Part shown: one piece after another, positions 2,617-29,783 of the stretch
Position numbering within the stretch: position 1 is the first letter of the stretch
Layout: each line of letters opens with the position of its first letter
Source: a virus
Taxonomy: Duplodnaviria; Caudoviricetes
IMG/VR virus record: IMGVR_UViG_2617271113_000004
Span: 96,001-160,000 of that record
Length of the DNA stretch: 64,000 nt
Strand: one strand, 5' to 3'
Position numbers and translations under genes: made by a program
Notes under the pieces: generated by a model
What the model saw: the letters and a program-made list of their open reading frames with translations, nothing else
Databases searched by the model: none
What the model was told of the DNA's origin: nothing

Positions 2617-4539
2617 TTATTGCCCTTTTAGGGTATTTGTTCCTAATATAAAATCTCCTAATGTTATATCTCCATTTAAATCACCTAGAAAATAAACTAC
2701 GGACTCTTCTTCAGTCAGCGTGTATATATCATATGGCATTGGCAGCACTTCAGACTCTAAATGATCTTTTATCTTTCTAATACTTTGATCATAAATATTT
2801 GTTTTATAAGTATTTATAAAATCTCCATCAACGGATAACAGCATAGAATGATTAAGTTTAGAATAATCTACAGTTATATCTAAAGTGCTATGATCATATA
2901 GCATAATCTTTTGTAATGCTTTTCTTATAAAATCATATCTAGATGATTCTATATCTAAATTTTCTTCCAATTGAAGTTCCTTGATTTCTACTTCATTATT
3001 CTTATTTGTTATTGAAGACACTAAAATTGAATCAATCACTTCTAAAAGAAAAGATTCTTGATATTGTTTATAATTATTGGTAGAAATAATTGAAGATCTA
3101 TCTTTGAAAGAACTAATATATGAACTCTCTAAACTGTTGCAAACGTTATTGTGCTCTAATACAGTAACTTCATAGGTCGTTGTTTCTTTATCCAATTGTA
3201 CAGCCGTATTGAGTTTTTTTCTTTTAATTGTTAAATTCTCGTGAATATTAGAAAGGACTTCAATAAATTCAGTCGGAGCATAATCTATCCATAGCCCGAT
3301 TTTACTTTCAATTAATGGCGTAAGGATCAAATCAGAAAAATCGACATGGTATTCAACATCTCTTTTTTTACAGTCATCTAAGAGTAAATCAATAATATCT
3401 TTTATTAAAATGTGCCTTTCATTCTCTTTTTCTTTTATAAGTTCGTATTGGCCTATTTGTTCTACAGTATCTACATTGTTTATATCATGCATCTCATGAT
3501 TTAACTGAAGTTCCTGCTGATCAACAATCAAGAACGGTAAGTAAATGTCACTCAAAACGCTTTTAAACAAGTTATAGAATTGCTCATTTTTTTTGTATAC
3601 AATTTCCTCATAGACGATAGGCTCTGATATTAATTTTACAGCATCATTTATACAAGACACAAAGCTATCATTAAGCTCAGAGTTATATAAGCTGGTAATT
3701 ATAGCGTTTTTTATCTCTAGTTCATATATGCCTTGTAAAAGAATAGTTATTTCTTCTTCATTTCTCAAGATTGCTTCATATTCCGTCTCCTGAATAATGC
3801 GATCTAACTGATCATCCAGGAAAGACTCTAAAAGGATAGCAACGAAATCCTCTTGGTCCTCATTAAAACGATCTAATAATTTGTAACTTCTAACTAATTC
3901 AGCAAAGTAATTAACCGAACCAATTAAATCCTCATGTAAACCTTTTTTAATCGAAGATGATATAAGAGAGTTGACCTCTTCAATTACTGTTGATTTATTA
4001 TACTTTTTATCATAATTCCTATTTAATAAAGGAGTTTTATCTTTAAATAATACTTGAATAGCATCTTCAACTGTTGAATTAATCGTATACTCTAAATTTG
4101 AATCATTTGCTGTTAAAAGCACATCAATGATGTCATGAAGTAACTCAAATAGTATCGTTTCATTATCGATTCCTTTAATGTTTGAATAGACCCAATCGCT
4201 TACTTTCGTATTAGATACTCCTCTAATACGAAAATGATTAAAGTCGTTAGCATCAACTTCATTAAAATGTTTATGAGTAACCCAATGGGATTCCTTCACT
4301 CCATGTGTGGCCATTGATAATTTGGAGCGAAGGCGGAATATATCCTTGTTTGGGTTATAATTTTCTTCTGAAATGCCTGTATCTATAATCTTCCTGTGTA
4401 GTGTAAAAAGTTCTTGATTATTTAAATCGATAGCCTTAAGACGGAGATATTGATTGTTGAACTCAGGTTGAAAAGTGAACGTTTTAAATAATCGATCAAT
4501 ATGTGAGTCCTTTACAGGTTGATTTCTCACCTTGCTCAC
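2617..4539 (-). CDS. Hypothetical acidic protein, probably structural
   Basis: 640 aa ORF in the structural operon; no motif recognised. Confidence 0.5.
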   Translation of the reverse strand: MSKVRNQPVKDSHIDRLFKTFTFQPEFNNQYLRLKAIDLNNQELFTLHRKIIDTGISEENYNPNKDIFRLRSKLSMATHGVKESHWVTHKHFNEVDANDFNHFRIRGVSNTKVSDWVYSNIKGIDNETILFELLHDIIDVLLTANDSNLEYTINSTVEDAIQVLFKDKTPLLNRNYDKKYNKSTVIEEVNSLISSSIKKGLHEDLIGSVNYFAELVRSYKLLDRFNEDQEDFVAILLESFLDDQLDRIIQETEYEAILRNEEEITILLQGIYELEIKNAIITSLYNSELNDSFVSCINDAVKLISEPIVYEEIVYKKNEQFYNLFKSVLSDIYLPFLIVDQQELQLNHEMHDINNVDTVEQIGQYELIKEKENERHILIKDIIDLLLDDCKKRDVEYHVDFSDLILTPLIESKIGLWIDYAPTEFIEVLSNIHENLTIKRKKLNTAVQLDKETTTYEVTVLEHNNVCNSLESSYISSFKDRSSIISTNNYKQYQESFLLEVIDSILVSSITNKNNEVEIKELQLEENLDIESSRYDFIRKALQKIMLYDHSTLDITVDYSKLNHSMLLSVDGDFINTYKTNIYDQSIRKIKDHLESEVLPMPYDIYTLTEEESVVYFLGDLNGDITLGDFILGTNTLKGQ

Positions 4540-6299: not shown

Positions 6300-7523
6300 T
6301 TACTTTTGAAGTAAAATTCGGACTGCACCGACAGAACCTTTCCAATCCCACCCAGTAGGCACACCAGGAAGTTGGCCAGTAGCTTTAAAGCTTGCTGTAA
6401 CTTCTTGTGGAGAGTTACCGGTATTATTAACTTCGAGTGTAACTAAACCAGATTCATAGTGAATGTTGGCTGGTTCTACAACTTGACCGCCAACTTTAAT
6501 CTCAACAGATCCCTCTACAAGAGGAGTTTTTTCAATGCGGTAATATTGTTTTCCGCTAGATCCAGGATTAACACTTCCTAAAAGAACATCTTTGAAAGGA
6601 ACTTCAATTCTAGAACCATTTGTCAATCCAGGAATACCTTGCGGATAATATTTACTTGATTTTGCATCAAAGTTACGATATGTTTTTTCATAAGGATATC
6701 CAGGGAACTTATTGTCTTGAATATCATCTGCTGTCATACCACTAGAGCTATCTATTTCTGCAAGCTGTTCATCTGTTGATCCTACCCACTGTAACCATCC
6801 TTGAGGAGGAAGATTAGTTTCAACTGCCCAAACTTGGCCAATCACTTGCTCTTGAAGTCTTGAAATCTCAGCAATTGCAGCAAATTTTTGATCCGCAGTC
6901 GCTTCTGTGCTTTTTAATACATCACGTTGAGCCTCAAAATCAGCTACAATTAATCGTCCATTTTCATCTGACATCACATAGTCACCGTGTTTTACCGGCT
7001 TATCGATGTCTTTGTCATAAAAACTTCCCCATTCAATCTCTTCTGCATTAGCTCTCGAAGGAATGTAAGGCAATTCAATATAAATTTCATTTTCTACTGT
7101 AGGCTGCATACCATTAAATCCATCTACAAATTCCTCATAGAGATTTCCATATGCAACACCAATCGCTTTGTTTGCTGTACGGGTATGATCTTGTCCACTT
7201 TTCCCAACTTCAAGTACATCTTTACCGCCATTAGCTAAAGTAAGAACTGGTCGCTGCACATTAGCATCAAAATCATTGATTGTTCCATTTTTGAATTCTC
7301 CACCATCATCAGTTGAAATCGCAACTGCACGACCCTTAGGAATTACGACCCATCCATCTCCACCAAAGTGATATCGAAACAATCCTTTTAGGCGTGGATC
7401 TACTAAGAATTTTTCCCCAGGTGAATCATGGGTGCCTGCTTGCAATTTAGTATTACTACGAAAATATTGATCTTTTGTATCAAGAACAGGGGTTGCACCT
7501 TTAAATAAAGCCATTTGCTTCAC
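6300..7523 (-). CDS. Capsid-associated structural (decoration-like) protein
   Basis: 407 aa between protease and MCP; VVIPKGR, AIGVA and GDYVMSDENG motifs as in head decoration proteins. Confidence 0.55.
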   Translation of the reverse strand: MKQMALFKGATPVLDTKDQYFRSNTKLQAGTHDSPGEKFLVDPRLKGLFRYHFGGDGWVVIPKGRAVAISTDDGGEFKNGTINDFDANVQRPVLTLANGGKDVLEVGKSGQDHTRTANKAIGVAYGNLYEEFVDGFNGMQPTVENEIYIELPYIPSRANAEEIEWGSFYDKDIDKPVKHGDYVMSDENGRLIVADFEAQRDVLKSTEATADQKFAAIAEISRLQEQVIGQVWAVETNLPPQGWLQWVGSTDEQLAEIDSSSGMTADDIQDNKFPGYPYEKTYRNFDAKSSKYYPQGIPGLTNGSRIEVPFKDVLLGSVNPGSSGKQYYRIEKTPLVEGSVEIKVGGQVVEPANIHYESGLVTLEVNNTGNSPQEVTASFKATGQLPGVPTGWDWKGSVGAVRILLQK

Positions 7524-8996: not shown

Positions 8997-11149
8997 ATCT
9001 CACCTCCCTTAAATTTTGTAACCTCACACTCACAATTAGGGTGCCAAGGCGGTATTTTATAAAATATAGCAACTTCATCAAGAGATGAGAGTTGTTTCAA
9101 AGGAATAGGTTCTTTATTCTTTCTTTGGCATGCCTTACAATCACCTTCATAGTAAACAGATGCGTATTCTTCATCTTCTTGCATTAATACTAAGGAATAT
9201 CCATAATTGTAGCTTTTTGCAAGTAATGTTTTAGCATTACTTTTAACACTTGAACGAACAGCTTCAAACGCTGAAGCAACACTAGACATTACATCTTTCT
9301 CACTTTCAAATTTATCTAAATTAGATTGAGTTATTGATGAAATGCGTGTTTCTATTCTATCTAGCTGTTCCTCTATTTCGGTTTTAATTGTATTATGAGC
9401 TAAAGACTCATTAATTTTTCCGACACCTTTAATCTTGGAATGTGCTTCATCTACGCCTTTATTAAATAAATAAATGGTTTGTTTTTGAAACTCATTTTGG
9501 AAACGATCTCTCTCTAATCGATTAAATGAAAATAAATTAGAAGACTCCTCTAAGGGAAATGTTAGCCTTTGTATTTTTGTTTCTATTTGTTCCAGCACAC
9601 TTGCCTTCATATGATTAAATGCCTGATTTAGTGTTTCTTCTGTTTCCCATAAGGAATCAATCAAAGAACGCTTAAAATTCGTTTCTGATTCATTAGTAAT
9701 GCCATTCATTGTATCTTTTGTAAACTCTGTTGCTCTTTTAGGGCCATCCTTTTTTCCGTGTTGATTTTGTGGTTGATTTTTATTCTGTGTTGCATTTGCA
9801 GCTGGATCAGAATCGGTAGCACCTATCATTTGATAACGTAAACGAGATTCATCAGCTGTAGGTTCCTGTCCCATATTCGCTCTCGTTTCTTCCCAAGTCT
9901 GAATATCACTAAGGAATTTGTGAATTTCATGATTTTCTTTTGCAATCAATCTTTCTTGCTCAATTTCATTGAATACGAAATCTACGTTAAAATCTGGATT
10001 GACTAAAGGATCATATCCACCCTCAATTAATAATTCATCAATAATAAATTTATCAATGGCTGTCTGAAGTACTTTTTGCCAACCCTTTACTCGGTCTGCT
10101 TTTTGTCCAGTCATAGCATCAGCAGTGTTGCGATTTGCCGTGTTACCTCTACCAAAATCAACTTGTGATAATCCCATTCCAGCAAATACACGATTTTCAA
10201 AATAATCTAGATACGGCCTTCCGTCAATGGCATCTACATTAACTGCTTCAACATTATGACGCTCAGGTATGACAAATATACTGTCCTCTGTCATTCCGTC
10301 AACTGTTGCTTGAACCTGTTCTATTTCTTCATCGGTGGCTTCAAATCCATCTTTATTTTCGCCTACTTTATATTTTAATAAAGGGAAAATGTGTTTATAC
10401 AACAGTAAAGAAGCATTCTCTTCTACTTTTCGAAGAAGTCGTATATCCTCAATTACTGGAGCTAGCCAAGGATCACCGAAAGCAGATCCTGAACGTACAT
10501 TAGTAGCAATATGAATGATATCCTCAGGATTAAATTCAATTGCATCTCCACCGCCCTCAACTTCTTGTTGATACTTTGTTACCGTCCCATTCTCATCTCT
10601 TGCAATTGAGATTGTTTGAGGTGGGAGAATAAAGTAACCAACTACTGGCTCTTTTGATGGAGGCACGGGAGTTAGGCTAACTCCAGGAGGTAGACCTGCA
10701 CCATTTTTTGCACGTGCCTTAGCGATAAAACAATTGGATGACCAGACAATATCTCTAGCTATACCATGGAATAAACTTTCTACAGGAGTTCCAGTAGCTA
10801 CTTCCATCATTTCAAGACGTAGTTTGAGATAATCTAATGCCTGTTCATTCTTTGATTTGAAGTTCCAACCGGATTTAAATATGAGCTCTTCATATTTCAT
10901 AACCCCTTGAGTAAGATACCCGTCTTTTCTAATGGCATTAGCAATGGTAGTTAGGTCAACATCATGTGTTTCAAAGTTATCCCTACCACCTCCGCCACCA
11001 GAACTATTACTAATCTGATAACCCACCCTTTTCGCTTTGGCTGTTTTAGGATCTCGATTAATCGAACTCCTTGAACCAGAAGAACTTGAAGGAGATGTCG
11101 CATTATTAAATCTAATGTTATTGAACAAGTTATAAAATAATTTTGACAA
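8993..11149 (-). CDS. Portal protein fused to a C-terminal MuF-like head-morphogenesis domain
   Basis: Portal motifs (FNPEDIIHI, AFGDPW, TWEETR) plus terminal CKAC...PPWHPNCEC. Confidence 0.8.
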   Translation of the reverse strand: MSKLFYNLFNNIRFNNATSPSSSSGSRSSINRDPKTAKAKRVGYQISNSSGGGGGRDNFETHDVDLTTIANAIRKDGYLTQGVMKYEELIFKSGWNFKSKNEQALDYLKLRLEMMEVATGTPVESLFHGIARDIVWSSNCFIAKARAKNGAGLPPGVSLTPVPPSKEPVVGYFILPPQTISIARDENGTVTKYQQEVEGGGDAIEFNPEDIIHIATNVRSGSAFGDPWLAPVIEDIRLLRKVEENASLLLYKHIFPLLKYKVGENKDGFEATDEEIEQVQATVDGMTEDSIFVIPERHNVEAVNVDAIDGRPYLDYFENRVFAGMGLSQVDFGRGNTANRNTADAMTGQKADRVKGWQKVLQTAIDKFIIDELLIEGGYDPLVNPDFNVDFVFNEIEQERLIAKENHEIHKFLSDIQTWEETRANMGQEPTADESRLRYQMIGATDSDPAANATQNKNQPQNQHGKKDGPKRATEFTKDTMNGITNESETNFKRSLIDSLWETEETLNQAFNHMKASVLEQIETKIQRLTFPLEESSNLFSFNRLERDRFQNEFQKQTIYLFNKGVDEAHSKIKGVGKINESLAHNTIKTEIEEQLDRIETRISSITQSNLDKFESEKDVMSSVASAFEAVRSSVKSNAKTLLAKSYNYGYSLVLMQEDEEYASVYYEGDCKACQRKNKEPIPLKQLSSLDEVAIFYKIPPWHPNCECEVTKFKGGEM

Positions 11150-11248
11150 TCTATCTCCTCCTTCAATAACCTATATTTCCTTATATAAAGCTATAGAGCC
11201 TATTTTATTAATTCTTCAATAATTATACATGATACACTGTCATATGAG

Positions 11249-12478
11249 CTAAACCGCTGATAACGAGTATCCATTGGTACGAGCATACTCAGCAATCCAA
11301 TTATCCGATACGTCGTTAGTTCCTTCTAAATCCTCAACTATTCTATAAAATAGTCTTATTTCTTCCTTTTTTTGAATTGCAGATAGCTGACGACCATAAA
11401 ATACACTCTCATTTTTATAAATATTGATCATGTCTGTGACACTTTCATTATAATCTTTTCTTGTCTTTTGAATTGAATTAACAAGAATATCCGCTATGCG
11501 ATCCGTTGATTTTCCACTTTCTTCGGGCTGTTCATATAGCCAGTCCTTAAGATCGTTATTTGCTTTGTTTACGATTTGTTGATAGAAATAATTTCGTTGT
11601 GATGTAAATGCCTCTTTCTTATCATCAATCATCATATACTGCTGCTTAATCGAGTTGTGTACAGATTTCATTTCTTTAAAACTCAGTATTAGATGTGATT
11701 TTAATGCTTGAACATTTTTTAAATCTGCTAATTGTCTTATAAGCATTTCTACATTTCCATCTATTAATTCTTGAGGATTATGAATAATCTCCTCTGCTCC
11801 TTCAATAATCGTTTCAAATTGAATAGCCCTGTTACGATGCACATATGCTATATCTCCCAACGATGTATGAAATGTATCTAAATTTCTTCTCTGCTTTTCA
11901 AGTTCTTCTATTTCCTTCTCAATTTCATCCAATTCACCATGCATCTGATTTTCATAAGCTTCTAATAACTTGTATTCAGATAGAATCCATGTCGATATAG
12001 AGTCTTTTTCTGCTTTAATTACTTTTTCAGTTTCCGTTTCAGAAGTGATTTGTGTTCGATAATGATTGTCAATGAATGTAACTTGTTTTTCTAGAGAAGC
12101 TTTCATATAAAATAACATTGAGTAAATCTCTAAATCTGCAGTTCCATCAAAACCACAATAAGTGTCTTCTACCTGAAAAGCTTTTTCTAATTCTCGTTCT
12201 TCTAACAAGATTAAATAATCATTAAATTGCTCCTTGTTTTGTCTGTTTTTAATAACTTCTAAAAGCGAGTTCATTCGATCAATTAGTTGCTGATAATCAA
12301 TGATTGCTCTAGTTATTAAAAAATCTTGAGAACGATCTATTTTGTTTACTGTATCCGATCCTAAAGGGAACTTCGATTCTTTATCTGGATATTGCATGTT
12401 CGGTCTATAACTAATTAAATGCCTTTCATAATTGGTATCAATTCCAATGTCTCCATACCATGTTTTATGTTTATTCAT
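11249..12478 (-). CDS. Hypothetical helical protein
   Basis: 409 aa between terL and portal. Confidence 0.5.
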   Translation of the reverse strand: MNKHKTWYGDIGIDTNYERHLISYRPNMQYPDKESKFPLGSDTVNKIDRSQDFLITRAIIDYQQLIDRMNSLLEVIKNRQNKEQFNDYLILLEERELEKAFQVEDTYCGFDGTADLEIYSMLFYMKASLEKQVTFIDNHYRTQITSETETEKVIKAEKDSISTWILSEYKLLEAYENQMHGELDEIEKEIEELEKQRRNLDTFHTSLGDIAYVHRNRAIQFETIIEGAEEIIHNPQELIDGNVEMLIRQLADLKNVQALKSHLILSFKEMKSVHNSIKQQYMMIDDKKEAFTSQRNYFYQQIVNKANNDLKDWLYEQPEESGKSTDRIADILVNSIQKTRKDYNESVTDMINIYKNESVFYGRQLSAIQKKEEIRLFYRIVEDLEGTNDVSDNWIAEYARTNGYSLSAV

Positions 12479-16876: not shown

Positions 16877-17068
16877 TTACTGCTGTTTTTCCTTTTGCTT
16901 TAGTTCCTCAATATACGCCTTCTCTTTTGCTTCTTCAGTTATCGCTTTTTCAAGAAGTCTTCTGATTTCATATGCTCTATCATTTGGCTTGATGTCCTTA
17001 AAATGATTTCGTAGCAAGTCGTCATTCTTTCGAATTCGAGCTACAAGCATATTATTGTCTTGCGACAT
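16877..17068 (-). CDS. Putative ParR-like adaptor (ribbon-helix-helix type)
   Basis: 63 aa overlapping the parM 3' end; beta-helix-helix pattern. Confidence 0.6.
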   Translation of the reverse strand: MSQDNNMLVARIRKNDDLLRNHFKDIKPNDRAYEIRRLLEKAITEEAKEKAYIEELKQKEKQQ

Positions 17069-18215
17069 GCGGTTGCATCTCCTTCACAGGACTTACATAC
17101 TCCTCTAATACTTTCTCTTGACCAAGCTCATCTGATAACTCAAGAACACCATACATATAAAATCCTAGAAGGTTCGTAAATTGGGAATTTTCCATTATAA
17201 TAAATCCTTGGATATTTTCTTTTTCAAAGTTCTTGCCAACTTCCTTTGCGTAGACATGAGCCCCCCCACCAGTGGCAATAATCAATTGTAACCGGTTAGA
17301 CTCATTTCCCCATGCTGTTGTAATTGAATCAGCAATAGGTTTAGCTCGATCAGCAATAACAGCTTGAATTTCATCTGATACATCAAAGTCAGTATTTCTA
17401 TATTTAATATTTCCAGTCTGAATCGCATAGTCTAAATCCTGATCTGACGGGTGGAACATATAACCCATATCAGCGAATTTTAATTCGATAGATCTGCGAA
17501 GACGCTTATATACTTCTGTTACTCCAATTGTTGATTTATTTTTTGTGTCATCTTCTAGTACAACCCCATTACGGAATAAAGCATAATCCGTAGATACATG
17601 TCCGAAGTCAATGACTCCTAAATATTCTGCACGATGTTCAGACGGTGCTAAGAAGCTTTCTTCATCAAAGCGAAATTGATTGTATGTAACGGTACCTTCT
17701 GGTTGTCTTAACACAACTACGCTTTTGACTTTCACGTCTTTTTTAATGCTATTTTTACTGTCTAAATAGAACTCTACGGTAAAGTCTTTACTTAAGAATG
17801 ATTCTAAGTCTTCTTTAATCTTCATGTCGTAATCTGTATTCGGAAGCCCCGTAACAATAGTAACTTCATATGTTCCACTTTTATCAGGAAGGCTTAACCC
17901 AATTCCTGTATGGAAAAGAACCCTACTCTTTTCATCATTGGCACGATTACGTTTTTCAGTACGCACGTTTACATTTTCTTCTACTGGCATACCTAAAGCA
18001 TTATCTCCAACGAAATATGTTCCTTCTTCCGTTTTCACCACTAATTCTTGTATGTTTATTTCACTAGAGGATAGCAATGGACGGCTTGCTGGTGTCCCAC
18101 TAACTACGCCACTTGGTATTACATGTGGCTCTGGCTTTGCATTTGACATATACTTTAAACCACCAAAACCTACGTCTACCCCTACTAAATATGGCACCTT
18201 CTTCTCTTTCGTCAT
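17052..18215 (-). CDS. parM: ParM/StbA-family actin-like segregation ATPase
   Basis: GVDVGFGGLK, VTGLP, QPEG, VIDFGHVSTD and TGGGA actin-fold motifs. Confidence 0.9.
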   Translation of the reverse strand: MTKEKKVPYLVGVDVGFGGLKYMSNAKPEPHVIPSGVVSGTPASRPLLSSSEINIQELVVKTEEGTYFVGDNALGMPVEENVNVRTEKRNRANDEKSRVLFHTGIGLSLPDKSGTYEVTIVTGLPNTDYDMKIKEDLESFLSKDFTVEFYLDSKNSIKKDVKVKSVVVLRQPEGTVTYNQFRFDEESFLAPSEHRAEYLGVIDFGHVSTDYALFRNGVVLEDDTKNKSTIGVTEVYKRLRRSIELKFADMGYMFHPSDQDLDYAIQTGNIKYRNTDFDVSDEIQAVIADRAKPIADSITTAWGNESNRLQLIIATGGGAHVYAKEVGKNFEKENIQGFIIMENSQFTNLLGFYMYGVLELSDELGQEKVLEEYVSPVKEMQPHVARQ

Positions 18216-18577: not shown

Positions 18578-18641
18578 TGTTCTTGACTGGACTCTCACCA
18601 GTATCTCTTGTGACAAGCGCATTAACTTATACTACAAGAAC
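18578..18641 (-). ncRNA. tRNA-like RNA with truncated anticodon arm
   Basis: Acceptor GTTCTTG/CAAGAAC, D arm GTAT/ATGC, arm CTTG-TCA-CAAG, T arm ACTGG-TGAGAGT-CCAGT. Confidence 0.7.
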
Positions 18642-18732: not shown

Positions 18733-18807
18733 TCTCGATAGCAGGACTTGAACCTACGACCTCTGCGTCCCAAACGCAGCGCTCTACGCAAACTGAGCTA
18801 TATCGAG
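18733..18807 (-). tRNA. tRNA-Pro(TGG)
   Basis: Full cloverleaf; anticodon arm CTGCG-TT-TGG-GA-CGCAG; GGTTCAAGTCC; CCA not encoded. Confidence 0.93.
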
Positions 18808-19610: not shown

Positions 19611-19685
19611 TGGCTGAGTAGGTAGGATTCGAACCTACGACTAACCGGTTAACAGCCGATTGCTCTACCGCTGAGCTACTACTCA
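19611..19685 (-). tRNA. tRNA-Asn(GTT)
   Basis: Full cloverleaf; loop CT-GTT-AA; GGTTCGAATCC; encoded CCA. Confidence 0.95.
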
Positions 19686-21951: not shown

Positions 21952-22122
21952 AATAGTTTATCTTACTCTGAATTTAAAGTCACTACCTAAACCTGGGGAA
22001 AAACCCTTATAGGGGAAAATTTCTAAAAAAAATTGCTCGGGGTACTACCTTTTATATAGGGAGTTTTCCAGGGCGTTTGTAGCCCCCACCCCTAACAAAC
22101 TATTAGAAAAGGATGATGAACA

Positions 22123-22424: not shown

Positions 22425-22910
22425 ATGACTACAACGAGCATGAATAAGGATGCACTAACTACTGTACTAGCAGGTGCAAAGGAAGGAGTCAATAAGATAA
22501 AGAAGTCAAAACGATTTGAATCCATAGTTGAGAAAGCAGGTGTTGCATTAGGTAAAGCATACCGTGCAACAGAAGCTTTTATTAAAGGACATTGGAAGAA
22601 TGCTGCGCTTGCCACAGCTACAACAGTAGGTGCTGGTGCGATAACCACTGGGCTAGGCAGTGCGTTATGCGCAGGCGCCTTACTATATGGTGGCATAAAG
22701 ACACTAGCCTACTACCTAAGCCATAAACAGGTGCGATTCAAAGATGCAACTATCAATTTGTTTATTGAAAGTAGTATTGGATTCGTATATGGCATGGGCT
22801 TACTACTTGCTTATCTAATAGGTGGCACATTGCTAATCACGCTATCTGCTGAATTGGGACATTTCCTAGCTGCTAACTGGATGTATGTGCTGTATCTACT
22901 AGTAGGTTAA
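22425..22910 (+). CDS. Hypothetical membrane protein
   Basis: 161 aa with several hydrophobic helices and AAAGGAG RBS. Confidence 0.7.
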   Translation: MTTTSMNKDALTTVLAGAKEGVNKIKKSKRFESIVEKAGVALGKAYRATEAFIKGHWKNAALATATTVGAGAITTGLGSALCAGALLYGGIKTLAYYLSHKQVRFKDATINLFIESSIGFVYGMGLLLAYLIGGTLLITLSAELGHFLAANWMYVLYLLVG

Positions 22911-23869: not shown

Positions 23870-26800
23870 ATGATTACTATGAAAAATCAAACTGCGACTG
23901 TATCAAATCAATCTAACCAAACTAAAGGAGATGTTATTAAAATGGAAAATCGTACAATGTTAAAAGAAAATGGTTATCTATACACTGTTCAGGACATTCT
24001 TGCTGCCCTATCTAAATCAGAAGGTTTCAAATCACGTGATTCAAAGAACTTTGCTCGTGTACTAAGAGCAATGTCAGAAGGAAAGGCATTACTTGATATC
24101 TTAGCTAATCCGTCACTAGCAGGAGTACCGAATAATCAAGTTCGGTACTTTACTGAGTTTGTAGAAAACAACAAACTAGCAAAACGTGTATATAAACCAA
24201 CACGTAAAGGTGTACTTGTTCCAATTGCTGATATTAATCTAATGGAAATGCAAGAAGATAAAGTATACTCAACAATTGATTATTCTGAAGTAAATGTAGA
24301 CTCTTATAAAGAGATTAGTGAATCGTTCTTGAGTGAAACACTAGCTTCTACACCAGAGATGATTGAGTTTACTCGTAATGGAAAACTTATTAAACAACGC
24401 ATGATGCTTCCTATGCGTCATGTCTTCTTCGTGAGCTTAGGCTTGGAGCTCCCTGAAGAAGAAGCGGACTATGATCAGGAAGACTTTGATAATATTCATC
24501 TTCGTGAACGAGTAATGAAAGATGGATTTTATTTTACAGACGAAAATGGTGAAGAAGGACATGCTTACTTCTTCTTACGCACTCCATCTCAAGCACGTGT
24601 GTTACAAGCAGTCTTTATTGATACAGCTTTCATGTCCCCTGTTCAAGCGTTAAAACTATTAGGTCATGAATTAATTGCTTATGGCTCTCAAGATAATGAA
24701 GGCAATTATGTTGTTAAAGTAGACAAAATGATTACTCGTCCAGGTCTAGCTGGTACAAATACTGTTGCTTCTAAGACAGTTGATATTGGAAATATCGTGG
24801 AGATTAATCATAAAGGTGAACAACGCTTAGTTGGTGGTGTGCATACCCTACGTGTTGTAGAAGATAGACAAGTTGAAATTAAAACAGGTACGTATCGTGC
24901 TTGGGACAAAGAGAAACAATGCTTTAAAGAGTTTGATGCAAATGAGCATCCGATCTCACTAACAGCAGCAGATGGTGCGATCTTCTGTGATGAAGAGATT
25001 TATCATACACTTGGTGCAGAGTTCGGTCAATTTAACGATGCATGGCAAATTCGCATTACTCCATTTGTTAAAGGTCTTATGGTGTTCGTGCCAAATCTAC
25101 GTGCTTACTATGATGATCATATTATTGCATTTAAGTCTGCTGTTAAAGGTGACTTTGCTAATCTAATTACAGCTAATCCTGACTTCAAACCACAACTACG
25201 TATTGCTATGTTTAACCGTAATCTTAATCAAGAAAAGACGTATACGGATATGCCTTATCAATTTGTACAAGCTTCTTCACTAAACACAAGTGACCTATGG
25301 AAAGTTATGAAACCACACTTAGAAAAAGTAGGCAATGCATTACACGATCCAAGTATCATGAAGAAATATGTAGGGCTAGATAAAGTCATTGATGCTGATC
25401 TATTCGATCAGGAAACAGAACACTACATGATTGATCAGTCTCGAGTATCAACGTTTACTTCGTTCTTAGATATGTTTGATTGGACTTATGAAGATGTGCA
25501 TATGAAACGCTATGCATTAGATGTGCTCAAAGAAAAGATTGCTGATTGGAAAACCGGCAATGTGCCTGTAGAAGGACATTATCGCTATTTAATGCAAGAT
25601 CCATATGCTGTACTAGAAGCTGGTACAAAGTATACCGTTCGCAATGAAAATGGAGATCTAATGATAACAAATCGTGGATCTTATCACATTCAACCAAACG
25701 AAGCATTTGTCCCATCTGCTCATGAACATAAATCAAATGTCTATGTAGCAGCTGGACGTAACCCAATGATTGCAAAAGGTGAGTGGCAAGTGGTCCGTCA
25801 TCGCCCTATCGATATGTATAACCGTGCTTATAAGAAAGGTGCTTTCCGTAACATTACACTTATGAGTGTGCATGACATGAGACTATTTGCTATGGGTGGA
25901 GCTGACGTTGATGGAGATACTGCACTAACTGTAACAGATGAAACAATTGTACAAGCATTAAAGCGTAAAGAAACTTCTCCAGTAATGGATATCTCTTTTG
26001 TTGAGAAAGATGGCAATATCGAATTCTTAGGAGATGGTGTTCCTTATTCAAAAGAAATGACTGGTGTATATCGTATGCCAGAACACTTAGTAGACAAGCA
26101 AAATAATTACAAGATCACATTTACAAAAGAACAAAATACAGATGAACTCTATGAAGAGGTTCATAAGCTAGGTGTTGATTATGTCATACGTACATTAAAG
26201 CCAAACAAAATTGGTATTGCTACTAACATTGCATCTATCTTGGCAGATGCTGTTCGTGGCTTAGGCTATGACTTATATTTGAATAATGTATCTCAAGATC
26301 AAGTAATGACTACGATTAAACAGTATGAGAACTGGATTGACATCCTACGCTTAGTACAAGGTTGGGAAATTGATGCAGCTAAACATGGTGGTGCCTATCA
26401 AGAAGTCATGAAAGAAACATTAGACTTTATGGATAACCCACCTGAATCATTATCATATCTACACAAAGGTCTTGGTCGTCGTGTATGGAATAAGCCTAAT
26501 TGGTTAGCAGCACGTGTTGGAAAGAAAGGTCATGATCTGGGGTCTGTGTTGTCACGTCTTATGGATCTTGTTCAACAATTCGAAGACAATATGTTAACGA
26601 ATGAATTGGAAAGAATGCATCTAGAAGCAGATAGCTTTTCTCTGTTAGCTAAACTAAACAGTGCATTCCAATTAGATCCTGCTTACTTTAATGAGCTTGC
26701 TAATCATGTAAAACAATTAAAAGCTTCTTATGGTTCAGCTGTTCGTAAGACACATCAAGCAGCTCAAGATAAGAAGCAAGTTATTATTGAATCAAATACA

Positions 26801-27376
26801 CCTGATCATATACGTGATCTCCAATTTGAAGAAATTGAAGTGAAGTTAAACAACTATATTGGAGACATCGCAGATATGGCTCGTGATAAGATTGCAGAGC
26901 TTATGAGTATGTATCCAGCTAAAGATATTGGATATGTATCTTACTATGTAACATATGTAGATCGTAAGAAAGAAGCATCTCTCTCTTTCCCATGGACTGT
27001 AGCACGTGAAGCATTTATTCAGACACTTTCTTATGTGGAGAATAAAGAGAAGCAAGATCAACTTACTGCGAATGAAGTTGTAGACAATAATATTACACTT
27101 GCTGTATGTATTCCTGATGCGATTCAAGAGCAGTTTACAATGGAGAAAGTATTAGAAGGATTGCATAAGCAACCATCATTCATTCAAGCTGTAGGTGATA
27201 AGTATAGACTAATCATTGGTCAAACTGAAGTAGGCTTTGTATTTAATTCAGCTAAGAATATTAAGTCACTTCTAGGTCATGATAAGTATGAACTTAATAT
27301 CAGTACGTCTACACCTGGCCGTGGAACACGTACAGTTAACCTAGAAGTGAATGAACTAATCAAGATAGGAGCCTAA
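23870..27376 (+). CDS. Single-subunit double-psi-barrel RNA polymerase, eukaryotic-RdRP-like (SPbeta YonO-type)
   Basis: DGAIF, WQIR...KGLM, GRNP, catalytic GGADVDGD (DxDGD) and IDAAKHG occur in the order seen in cellular RdRP/YonO proteins. Confidence 0.88.
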   Translation: MITMKNQTATVSNQSNQTKGDVIKMENRTMLKENGYLYTVQDILAALSKSEGFKSRDSKNFARVLRAMSEGKALLDILANPSLAGVPNNQVRYFTEFVENNKLAKRVYKPTRKGVLVPIADINLMEMQEDKVYSTIDYSEVNVDSYKEISESFLSETLASTPEMIEFTRNGKLIKQRMMLPMRHVFFVSLGLELPEEEADYDQEDFDNIHLRERVMKDGFYFTDENGEEGHAYFFLRTPSQARVLQAVFIDTAFMSPVQALKLLGHELIAYGSQDNEGNYVVKVDKMITRPGLAGTNTVASKTVDIGNIVEINHKGEQRLVGGVHTLRVVEDRQVEIKTGTYRAWDKEKQCFKEFDANEHPISLTAADGAIFCDEEIYHTLGAEFGQFNDAWQIRITPFVKGLMVFVPNLRAYYDDHIIAFKSAVKGDFANLITANPDFKPQLRIAMFNRNLNQEKTYTDMPYQFVQASSLNTSDLWKVMKPHLEKVGNALHDPSIMKKYVGLDKVIDADLFDQETEHYMIDQSRVSTFTSFLDMFDWTYEDVHMKRYALDVLKEKIADWKTGNVPVEGHYRYLMQDPYAVLEAGTKYTVRNENGDLMITNRGSYHIQPNEAFVPSAHEHKSNVYVAAGRNPMIAKGEWQVVRHRPIDMYNRAYKKGAFRNITLMSVHDMRLFAMGGADVDGDTALTVTDETIVQALKRKETSPVMDISFVEKDGNIEFLGDGVPYSKEMTGVYRMPEHLVDKQNNYKITFTKEQNTDELYEEVHKLGVDYVIRTLKPNKIGIATNIASILADAVRGLGYDLYLNNVSQDQVMTTIKQYENWIDILRLVQGWEIDAAKHGGAYQEVMKETLDFMDNPPESLSYLHKGLGRRVWNKPNWLAARVGKKGHDLGSVLSRLMDLVQQFEDNMLTNELERMHLEADSFSLLAKLNSAFQLDPAYFNELANHVKQLKASYGSAVRKTHQAAQDKKQVIIESNTPDHIRDLQFEEIEVKLNNYIGDIADMARDKIAELMSMYPAKDIGYVSYYVTYVDRKKEASLSFPWTVAREAFIQTLSYVENKEKQDQLTANEVVDNNITLAVCIPDAIQEQFTMEKVLEGLHKQPSFIQAVGDKYRLIIGQTEVGFVFNSAKNIKSLLGHDKYELNISTSTPGRGTRTVNLEVNELIKIGA

Positions 27377-28220
27377 CGCCTACAAGCTCCTATGCTGTTA
27401 GTATAGCATATCTAAAGTAGTACGACCATTGTTCGTGTATGGAGTCCAACATTGCTAGTTCCTCTTAGGACTAACTAGGATGTTGGTCTTCTATATACGA
27501 ATGTTATCTTATATTGCAAGGATAATGTTCGGATATAGAAGAAATCCTTCGGATAGGTGTATCAGCATAGCAATGCTCCCCTCTCCTCCCTACCGTTGCA
27601 TAGCGACACTGCCTTCGGCACAGCAGACCACCTCCGCCCGCTCCTTCTATTTGCCAGTTAAGCTTGCTAGCGCCCACTCTCACAGCACGTTCACCGACTA
27701 CACTAGTAGTATGCGGGTTATGTTTCAGCACAGCTCACTTGTCCACTATTTGTCAGCCTGTCGGCTAGCTCATTGAGTTATAGCCCCCACTATAGCTCGC
27801 TCACGCTTTCCTATTGCCCACTAATGGGTAAACCCTCGGTAACTCTGCATTCTATCTGCACGGCTCTCATTTTGCCTCCTAGAGGGCGGGGTGGGAGCAT
27901 TGCCGAGGGAAAAGTGTGTGTGCAGATGTAGCAAGCGTACCGATATAGATAGCTCTGCCGAAGAAGAAAGCTCAGCGTAGCTCTGCTTATCTATAGTCTA
28001 CATACTGCAACTATAAGCTTATTAGCTAGCTCATCCTCTGCTGTATATTTCTGTTCATACCAACATAGTAAGCGTACTGTATCTTTTAGTAGCCTATCCT
28101 CTCTGCCCCCTATTTATGTGAGCATAACCCCCCATTGTATCCGATCTTTTCGTTTGCGCTACTTATAAAAGTGCAGAGCTTCCCCACGGCCGACAACTAC
28201 ATAAGAGCTGCGGTACTAGC
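27365..28220 (+). ncRNA. Large GC-rich structured non-coding element downstream of the RNA polymerase
   Basis: No credible ORF; many long stems with G-U pairs on the plus strand. Confidence 0.6.
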
Positions 28221-28560
28221 TTTCTTTATTGTTGGCTTTACTGTTTATTTTGTATGCTTATTGTAGTAGTATGACTGTATCAGTTAGCTTTACTTTTACT
28301 AAGTAAGACTTACTGTTTATTTGATGAACTCTTTCTTTTATCTTCAAAACCCCCTATATAGTATGTAGTGCCTTTCATAAGTAAGTAATGCTTAAGAAAA
28401 ACCCTCTCATATATTATTAACACCTGAAAAACCTTAGGAAATGCTACACTTCGATATAATTGTCACAAATTGTTCACATTATGTTCGTAATATATCGAGG
28501 TGAAAATGCGAACAAAGAGGTATCTTTATACTGACTTTATGTTATGATAGGTATTACATT

Positions 28561-28570
28561 GCCTGTCGGC
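28561..28570 (+). promoter_or_regulatory. GCCTRTCGGC motif (one of six co-oriented copies)
   Basis: Also at 27756, 34929, 35561, 52237 and 57436. Confidence 0.6.
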
Positions 28571-28607
28571 AAGTTAGGTAGATATCACGTAATAGGGGTG
28601 CAAGAAA

Positions 28608-28796
28608 ATGACAGAGAGAGATTTATTAAAGTTTCAGTACCGTCTGGGATACTACGAAGAATTACTACAGAAGAAGTATACTACCTTTGCTCATATAGAG
28701 AAGCTAGATCGTTTGGAAAGAAAGATAGATGAATGGTATTTTTATTCTACAGAGTTATATGAAGAACAAGAAGAACTACAGGAATGTGTAGGTTAA
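28608..28796 (+). CDS. Hypothetical protein
   Basis: 62 aa with AGGGGTG RBS. Confidence 0.6.
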   Translation: MTERDLLKFQYRLGYYEELLQKKYTTFAHIEKLDRLERKIDEWYFYSTELYEEQEELQECVG

Positions 28797-28857
28797 ACTT
28801 CTATAGAGGGAGGTATACTCTTCCCTCTCTGTTATCTTACTAAGGAGGAAGTATGTC

Positions 28858-29004
28858 ATGCATCTATTAGAGAAACTCGATCTAGCTATAAGTAATTGTG
28901 TTTCAGGAGAGTCTGTATCGGTGGAATTTACATATGATGAACTACAGACAATACGTAAGATGGTAGTACTGTCTGCTTATGAAGATAGATTATCTAATGA
29001 TTAA
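28858..29004 (+). CDS. Small hypothetical protein (48 aa, not in track)
   Basis: AAGGAGG RBS; MHLLEKLD...RLSND. Confidence 0.6.
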   Translation: MHLLEKLDLAISNCVSGESVSVEFTYDELQTIRKMVVLSAYEDRLSND

Positions 29005-29019
29005 TGGAGGTGAATGATA

Positions 29020-29187
29020 TTGTATAAGCTTACTACATATAAAGATGAGAAACTATTGCCTAATAAGCGTAGTTCATCTTATTCCCTATCTAATTATAAA
29101 GTATATGGTCTCCCCTCTCGCTATAGTTTTAGACCATTAAGAAGTGGTCCTGATTACATTTCTTCTAGTAAGTCATTTTATGTATAA
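29020..29187 (+). CDS. Small basic protein (55 aa, not in track)
   Basis: GGAGGTG RBS with TTG start. Confidence 0.5.
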   Translation: MYKLTTYKDEKLLPNKRSSSYSLSNYKVYGLPSRYSFRPLRSGPDYISSSKSFYV

Positions 29188-29375
29188 CGTCCCTTTTTAA
29201 TTGGGGGCGATTGGAAAATTATCTGAATTTTCCGTTACATTATCAGTTCCATATATCAATTCAGACGACCCACTTAGCCCTCCATTTATCTTCTTTAAGG
29301 CGGAGGAAGCAAAGTAGATTTATTAAGCTTATTCTTCTAGCTCTATTAAAAGAGTGAGCTTAGTTTTTTTAGGAG

Positions 29376-29783
29376 GTGACTTTCAATATCGGTAATGACT
29401 TTAGAGTAATTATTGCTGGCGGTAGAGATTTTAATAATTATGATGTGCTTTATCAATGTGCTAAGTGGGCTTTATTAAATTATATCCACTCAGATATTCC
29501 TATAACCATAGTAAGTGGAACAGCACGTGGTGCAGATTCATTAGGAGAGAGTTTTGCAAAAGATAACTCATTCTCTATACTCCCCATCCCTGCTGATTGG
29601 AAACGCTATGGGAAGAAAGCGGGTTATCTTCGTAATGCAGAAATGGCTAAACATGCTAATGCATTAATTGCGTTTTGGGATGGCCACTCACGTGGAACTA
29701 GACATATGATTGATCTTGCTTATAAACATAATCTTGAAGTCTTAATATTTGATTATCAAGGAAACTTAAATCGAGGTGATTGA
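29376..29783 (+). CDS. SLOG-family (YspA/DUF2493-like) protein
   Basis: IIAGGRDF, IVSGTARGAD, AG..RN.EM and FWDG.SRGT.HMI motifs. Confidence 0.88.
   Translation: MTFNIGNDFRVIIAGGRDFNNYDVLYQCAKWALLNYIHSDIPITIVSGTARGADSLGESFAKDNSFSILPIPADWKRYGKKAGYLRNAEMAKHANALIAFWDGHSRGTRHMIDLAYKHNLEVLIFDYQGNLNRGD

Follow-up and report, generated by a model that had tools for sequence, protein, structure and literature searches.

A conserved, single-copy non-coding element downstream of RdRP-fold polymerase genes in a clade of phages

Introduction

Among YonO-type single-subunit two-barrel RNA polymerases, which have the fold of RNA-dependent RNA polymerases (RdRPs), DNA-dependent RNA synthesis and transcription of phage genes are established only for YonO of phage SPbeta (Forrest 2017, PMC5467207). 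Forrest 2017 describes a single YonO start site per genome, at position 2225998, upstream of an "unannotated non-coding RNA" and yonK, and notes that neither its promoter nor possible accessory factors had yet been defined. We analyzed a window of 64,000 nucleotides (positions 96001-160000 of the 191-kb IMG/VR record IMGVR_UViG_2617271113_000004, here G000, which is classed as a provirus and is 97% complete according to CheckV), in which the gene for a YonO-like polymerase is followed by a gap of approximately 1.2 kb without genes. This gap holds a real, conserved, single-copy non-coding element that is linked to a clade of RdRP-fold phage polymerases and that has plus-strand structure in its left half.

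The closest described system is SPbeta (NC_001884), in which yonO is followed by yonN, a gene-free gap of 1.68 kb, and yonK. The window resembles SPbeta in that a long gene-free stretch lies downstream of a YonO-type polymerase gene, on the same strand and ahead of an operon. It differs in that yonN lies between the polymerase gene and the gap in SPbeta, and, across 162 aa, the two polymerases are only about 27% identical. A preliminary description of the window, made from the sequence alone, knew of no RNA partner of YonO. A non-coding RNA or leader near the polymerase nevertheless has a precedent in SPbeta, and literature searches on YonO found no account of an RNA tied to YonO-type polymerases beyond that one sentence of Forrest 2017 (PMC5467207). 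The packaging (pac) site of SPbeta is located between yonR and yonP, upstream of yonO and outside the gap; the analogy therefore does not suggest a packaging site for the element, and this reading was rejected. The yonN-yonK gap of SPbeta contains a match to the DUF3800-VIII RNA (RF03075) with 47.5 bits against 40.2 (NC_001884, 59409-59474; 9409-9474 of the SPbeta locus L160, minus strand), and this match may be the non-coding RNA of Forrest 2017. RF03075 had no match in G000, and the Bacillus subtilis control genome was matched.

Cis-acting RNA elements at transcription boundaries include nutR/tR1 of lambda, which combines a hairpin with rut sites, and the put RNA of HK022. The element is similar to these in that stable hairpins are followed by a C-rich, G-poor unstructured tract in what would be untranslated RNA past an early gene. 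It is different in that there is no sequence or model match, no N-like factor was identified, and the host is of the Bacillales type; its core motif is also far larger than boxB of lambda. The promoters of T7-class single-subunit polymerases and the hairpin promoters of N4 offer a second comparison. The features in common are a block of about 20 nt that is conserved in sequence, co-inheritance with the polymerase, and, putatively, hairpins in the initial transcript, whereas the element occurs once per genome of about 200 kb and its polymerase has a two-barrel RdRP-like fold rather than a T7-like one.

The GOLLD, ROOL, HEARO, and OLE RNAs and the DUF3800 motifs are, like the element, GC-rich, conserved, structured non-coding stretches in intergenic regions of phages or prophages, but no family of Rfam 15 reaches its threshold in the element. 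At the gathering score, no family (including GOLLD, ROOL, HEARO, OLE, 6S, group I and II introns, and ribozymes) was detected in 27200-28700. When E values up to 10 were allowed for this region, only chance matches of the microRNA or small nucleolar RNA type were obtained (best, 22.4 bits against a threshold of 80; E≥0.24), and the downstream regions of eight relatives gave nothing in the element. A full match to a known RNA class unlinked to the polymerase, which the preliminary description had named as a point against its own proposal, was not found with Rfam 15.

Conserved core downstream of the polymerase gene

The 1168-aa open reading frame (ORF) at 23870-27376 on the plus strand is, on the basis of its sequence, an RdRP-fold, YonO-like single-subunit polymerase. 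Residues 476-794 matched the Pfam RdRP family PF05183 with 34.1 bits, above the curated threshold of 23.8 (E = 1.7e-8), and D679, D681, and D683 of the motif GGADVDGD, which correspond to DxDGD, were invariant in an alignment of 18 sequences. In BLASTP, SPbeta YonO aligned around the catalytic motif with 27% identity over 162 aa (E = 3e-4), with GGADVDGD opposite DNDGD of YonO. The match to PF05183 and the invariant aspartates bear out the preliminary description, which had called this protein RdRP-like because of GGADVDGD, and the naming is justified. None of the PDB chains was similar to the polymerase by sequence. No close DNA relative was found by blastn among the GenBank phages, and tblastn with the polymerase against the same phages gave a single weak match, to Bacillus phage BUCT082 (22% identity).

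Protein and pattern scans yielded 14 distinct loci with polymerase relatives at 33-74% identity, namely the window, L002 (=L041, Oceanobacillus profundus), L010, L011 (=L003), L004, L005, L006, L007, L042 (Alicyclobacillus shizuokensis), L163, L164, L165, L166, and L167. Two further scans, one with a 15-mer (107 stretches, three of them with a polymerase, all known) and one with a peptide pattern (three contigs, none with a polymerase), added no polymerase locus. The pattern shared after the polymerase genes consists of a stop-codon hairpin, CCUUCGG-type motifs, a C-rich tract, a block with the sequence AAC..GGTAACTC.GCA, and two hairpins. A core of approximately 90 nt (27827-27915, plus strand; nhmmer, E = 1.8e-11) comprises this block, the hairpins P2 (27846-27860) and P3 (27863-27898), and a closing stem (27833-27842/27900-27909).

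A profile of the core was built from twelve segments of about 100 nt that aligned nearly gap-free. The profile re-found all 12 training loci and also L006, which was outside the training set (E = 2.4e-6), so that the core is present in 13 of the 14 loci. No match was obtained in L167, in SPbeta (L160, E≤10), or in more distant polymerase loci. The core is always downstream of the polymerase gene and on its strand. Ten loci have it 180-503 nt past the stop codon, and in three (L011, L165, and L006) it is preceded by intervening ORFs. With a covariance model based on sequence only, exactly one copy was found in each of four further complete genomes of 195-229 kb. The core is also single-copy in G000 and hence in 5/5 of the near-complete genomes that hold it (97-100% by CheckV), and two partial genomes had one copy each. 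The stretch between stop codon and core has more C than G in 13/13 loci, whereas every polymerase gene has more G than C. By eye, a hairpin followed by a U-rich run lies directly past the polymerase stop in L164, L166, L165, and L011.

Folding and architecture of the left half

The gap extends from 27377, just past the polymerase stop, to the first conserved downstream gene (28608) and contains no credible ORF. The four ORFs that can be drawn in it (43-98 aa; 27480-27776, 27504-27731 on the minus strand, 27773-27931, and 28135-28266) matched no Pfam family and had no conserved counterpart in the 13 related loci (best E = 0.085). The GC content reaches 0.44-0.51 in the gap against 0.33-0.37 in the flanks, with a negative GC skew (C>G), and of all 400-nt windows in the 191-kb genome, the one with the highest GC content (0.52 against 0.339) lies within it. 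The GC-rich, ORF-poor stretch of the preliminary description is therefore confirmed by the GC profile and by the lack of a conserved ORF.

Folding of 27377-28260 (884 nt) gave z = -5.05 on the plus strand, a stability matched by 0/20 shuffles, compared with z = -1.07 for the minus strand, in agreement with the plus-strand preference proposed before. Local folding was performed in 150-nt windows with 200 shuffles each. The z values across 27226-27600 were -2.89, -4.61 (27376-27525), and -3.13 (27451-27600), and the value at 27751-27900 was -2.36. In contrast, 27526-27750 (z = +0.84 and +1.70) and 27901-28125 (z = +1.40 and +0.93) folded worse than the shuffles. The element thus consists of two structured domains (27377-27600 and 27751-27915), an unstructured C-rich tract between them, and a poorly structured, AT-richer part behind them. 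The preliminary description had proposed a module of the polymerase and one multi-conformation non-coding RNA of about 850 nt, which would serve as a cofactor, 6S-like regulator, antiterminator, or RNA template. The genetic link of this module and its plus-strand structure hold, with the core downstream and on the same strand in 13/14 loci; the single long RNA does not, since the structure is local.

The left 540 nt or so (27377-27915) specify, on the plus strand, the stop hairpin, the switchable hairpins H1 and H2, the C-rich tract, and the core. A perfect 8-bp hairpin (27365-27372/27386-27393), seen in the sequence and in the minimum free energy (MFE) fold, has the stop codon of the polymerase gene in its loop. 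A second 8-bp hairpin of the MFE fold (27391-27410) overlaps it at 27391-27393; no U-tract follows the hairpins of 27365-27410, and no terminator-like site was called there. H1 (27446-27486, CCAACAU.../...AUGUUGG) can be extended to 27431-27502 with the 5' arm of H2 (27487-27542), which was listed as an inverted repeat with 22-nt arms and competes with this extension. The motif CCTTCGGATA follows at 27546-27555, its only exact copy in the 191-kb genome. After the polymerase genes of relatives, this 10-mer occurs four times in L010 and once in L002; L005 has two copies, one of which (9797-9806) is approximately 400 nt past the polymerase gene.

The spacer at 27560-27750 is C-rich, G-poor, and rut-like, with 28% C, 19% G, and a maximal (C-G) of 0.27 per 100 nt, and it folds no better than shuffles. 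It provides an untranslated, C-rich, G-poor, unstructured stretch of at least about 80 nt, as expected of a rut site. Three short hairpins (27755-27766, 27775-27798, and 27814-27831), present in the MFE and centroid folds of 27751-27900, lead into the core. An 11-bp long-range pairing of 27570-27580 with 27893-27903 is 100% complementary and competes with the 3' arm of P3; a length of 11 nt was reached by 1/500 shuffles. The repeat search also found the long-range complement 27390-27400/27560-27570.

Most of the individual pairings in the preliminary description were recovered. The stop codon is indeed enclosed in a hairpin, the hairpin of about 30 bp described at 27432-27501 appears in the MFE folds as 27431-27502, and these folds also contain the 15-bp stem at 27863-27898 with its six G-U pairs. 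The arms of 27833-27842/27900-27909 were listed by the repeat search. Both long-range pairs were found, 27570-27580/27893-27903 as described and 27390-27397/27563-27570 in the slightly longer form given above. The mutually exclusive partners of 27488-27501 were also reproduced, and the alternative was found in L010.

Conservation of the structure among relatives

Consensus folding was scored against column-shuffled alignments. The polymerase of L010 is 74% identical to that of the window, and in this pair all 34 of the 34 predicted pairs of H1 and H2 are kept, four by double changes and seven by switches between G-U and Watson-Crick pairs. The 14/14 pairs of H1 include two double changes, and the 20/20 pairs of H2 include two double changes and four switches. 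In L010 as well, folding showed the alternative in which H1 is lengthened with the 5' arm of H2. The z values for window/L010 were -6.9 on the plus strand and -1.7 on the minus strand, and those for L164/L166 were -9.4 and -5.2, respectively. Three alignments of coding sequence, used as controls, gave -1.0, +1.1, and +0.8 on the plus strand and -4.8, +0.2, and +0.1 on the minus strand. The value of -4.8 belongs to the minus strand of the 3' end of the polymerase gene (26820-27370, window/L010) and represents a false positive or an antisense structure.

The core hairpins could be compared across the clade. P2 is present in 11/13 loci, a modest support (combined p = 0.007). For the P3 segment, stability beyond that of shuffles was confined to the plus strand, with a Stouffer z of -3.8 against +0.4 on the minus strand. 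An alignment of five core sequences gave 17 weak pairs. In our view, the plus-strand structure of H1/H2 and of the close pairs is well supported and that of the core hairpins moderately supported. Structure in the right part is not supported; the z values for window/L002 over 27930-28600 were +1.2 on the plus strand and -0.2 on the minus strand, with no conserved structure found.

A helix joining the C-rich tract to the 3' flank of P3 throughout the family was considered and rejected, because it was not above chance in 11/13 loci and exceeded chance only in the window (1/500 shuffles) and L164 (32/500); outside the window this helix is unproven. In L164 (reverse strand) and L166 (3180-3215/3480-3515), an inverted repeat of about 30 nt (GCACACCCTTCGGGTAGGTGCTAA... 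and ...CACCTAYCCGAA..GTGTGC), with arms approximately 270 nt apart, flanks the core. It would close the whole domain and shows one compensatory double change between the two phages, and each arm can also fold on itself.

Right part of the gap

In the right part (27916-28600), the DNA is richer in AT and carries direct repeats, as well as a unique repeat block shortly before the first conserved gene behind the gap. An AT-rich stretch at 28231-28322 (GC 0.30-0.37) holds direct repeats found by the repeat search (GTTRGCTTTACTKTT and TTACTGTTTATTT, two copies each). The alignment with L002 revealed a conserved block at 28397-28502, which is single-copy in the genome and is a candidate operator or promoter of the next unit. 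It includes three direct TGT(T)CRYA repeats (28461, 28471, and 28482) within a 27-nt imperfect palindrome (28447-28502), and such a cluster of three with a spacing of 10-11 nt is the only one in the 191 kb. Outside the core, the sequence is poorly conserved between the window and L002.

CCTTCGGATA, the TGTCACAAATTGTTCAC block, and the AAACCCTCTCA block were considered as general promoter or terminator motifs and rejected; each is unique in the genome and none is a repeated promoter. Repeat arrays were seen by eye in three relatives: four copies of direct repeats similar to the approximately 20-nt GGTCTTTTNGGTGTTTCAAG after the core of L042 (about 9400-9540), approximately ten CTTTTACAG-like units after the polymerase gene of L167 (reverse strand, oriented 7230-7350), and AGCCTATATC units after the core of L163 (oriented 3500-3574). 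These arrays are unrelated in sequence and differ from that of the window.

Interpretation of the element

We read the gap as a composite region of cis-acting control that lies where the polymerase gene gives way to the next operon and joins the trailer of one unit to the start of the next, and assign this reading a probability of about 40%. In transcripts that read out of the polymerase gene, the hairpins and the C-rich tract would form an untranslated trailer, which may end or gate read-through by means of a hairpin and a rut-like tract, with the alternative pairing of H1 and H2 as a possible switch. The core, or the repeat block behind it, would then mark the start of the next transcription unit, plausibly read by the phage polymerase, and P2 and P3 would form a structured 5' leader of that unit. 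The 20-nt block AAC..GGTAACTC.GCA could act either as promoter DNA or as a junction of the RNA fold. Such an arrangement would mirror that of SPbeta, where YonO starts a single operon in the gap downstream of yonO-yonN and upstream of the unannotated non-coding RNA. Counted in favor of this reading are the linkage of the core to the polymerase gene in 13/14 loci, its single copy per genome, which parallels the single YonO start site reported for SPbeta (PMC5467207), the layout of the SPbeta gap, the plus-strand structure with the kept pairs of H1 and H2, the unstructured tract with C>G, the hairpins with U-rich runs seen by eye in four relatives, the unique repeat block, and the lack of conservation of the gap ORFs, as opposed to the 62-aa gene behind them (E = 6e-17).

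Several results weigh against a boundary and leader region. No sigma-70-like plus-strand promoter was called in 23870-29553, no intrinsic terminator (a GC-rich hairpin with a U-tract) was called on the plus strand in 27377-28600, and any dependence on Rho is purely conjectural. The core is missing from the complete genome of L167 (G007; polymerase 45% identical). The core profile showed no sequence similarity between the core and the SPbeta gap, and the operon behind that gap is late structural, whereas the genes behind the element are of DNA metabolism. Consensus folding gave weak values (-1.9 on the plus strand and -0.5 on the minus strand) for the poorly alignable L004/L007/L005, and no conserved structure was detected in the left part of the element for window/L002 (-0.4 and -0.5, respectively). 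In the unrefined MAFFT alignment of the 13 core sequences, no consensus pair was obtained with RNAalifold, and the consensus-fold test can give false positives, as one of the six coding control tests reached z = -4.8.

The structured left half could instead be a stand-alone or processed RNA that works in trans as a cofactor, a 6S-like decoy, a primer, or an RNA template, which we consider unlikely. The tight synteny with the polymerase gene in 13/14 loci at 33-74% identity, the plus-strand structure with its G-U pairs, the score of the enzyme in the Pfam RdRP family, and a GC enrichment of the kind that structured RNAs show in AT-rich genomes all agree with a trans-acting RNA. However, no promoter- or terminator-like signals bound an RNA gene, much of the stretch is unstructured, ORFs lie between polymerase and core in three loci, one complete relative encodes the polymerase but lacks the core, and the characterized relative YonO is DNA-dependent (PMC5467207). 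A narrower proposal, that the conserved RNA is a dedicated partner bound by the polymerase as template, primer, or specificity subunit in a two-part module, appears the least probable of the readings considered. Such a partnership, if true, would be relevant to how eukaryotic RdRPs originated and would provide a counterpart, in a bacterial virus, of RNA-templated synthesis by these enzymes. An element acting as DNA, such as a replication origin or a protein-binding array with the hairpins as single-stranded DNA or cruciforms and the repeats as iterons, is rather doubtful and ranks slightly below a trans-acting RNA. Direct repeats with an adjoining AT-rich stretch were observed behind the GC-rich part; the differing repeat arrays of L042, L167, and L163 (by eye), the approximately 30-nt inverted repeat around the core in L164 and L166, and a partition protein, with which the genome may replicate as a plasmid-prophage, also agree with a function of this kind. 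The difference in stability between the strands and the G-U pairs nevertheless favor an RNA read from one strand, a gene for a replication initiator was not recognized next to the element, and the cumulative GC skew has its turning point (minimum) near 22000, away from the element. Since the conserved structured part is located to the left of the repeats, a function as DNA explains the right part only.

It is very improbable, in our estimate, that the stretch has no dedicated function and is a decayed insertion or relic, such as a mobile element or degraded gene, that hitchhikes beside the polymerase gene. The composition foreign to the genome, the inverted repeats in L164 and L166, and the poor window/L002 conservation outside the core would fit a relic. 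They are opposed by the retention of the core in an unchanged position among polymerase lineages that are as little as 33% identical, the compensatory changes in H1 and H2, the single copy with no others in six complete genomes, and the absence of conserved ORF remnants.

What the clade provides is a short motif of sequence and structure, single-copy and co-inherited, at the place where SPbeta YonO starts transcription; this makes the core a concrete candidate for a recognition element or regulatory leader. The motif is also a candidate new RNA family of Bacillales phages or plasmid-prophages of about 200 kb, examples of which are the contigs from Oceanobacillus profundus and Alicyclobacillus shizuokensis.

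Genome setting

The minus-strand genes to the left of approximately 21700 include those for a terminase, a portal protein, and a protease-like protein. The plus-strand gene run starts at 22425, and the polymerase gene is its fourth ORF. The first conserved gene behind the gap encodes 62 aa (28608-28796, plus strand) and was identified by tblastn to L002 with 60% identity. It matched no Pfam family, and its identification as a YonK homologue was ruled out, as it has no similarity to SPbeta YonK. L002 contains a second copy of this gene just downstream of the first (11203-11343; 42% identical, E = 6e-4). A terminator-like hairpin after the 62-aa gene (28805-28828) is the plus-strand terminator-like site nearest to the gap. 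The DNA-metabolism genes behind the element encode SLOG, metallophosphatase, NADAR, and SNF2 helicase proteins.

A 387-aa protein encoded at 17052-18215 on the minus strand matched a PHROG annotated as partition protein (E = 2.3e-46). This protein, the provirus label, and the occurrence of the relative L041 as a whole contig of 194.7 kb suggest a plasmid-prophage lifestyle. Transfer RNAs (tRNAs) are present in the window at 18733-18807 and 19614-19685. L002 has tRNAs at 822-896 and 989-1060 beside a GOLLD RNA (RF02032, 195.8 bits, cut at the locus end) at 1-443 on the minus strand; the window has its tRNAs at the matching place but no GOLLD match at E up to 0.1. A third tRNA-like match, obtained in the E-value scan only, lies at 18578-18641 on the minus strand (46.3 bits against a threshold of 29).

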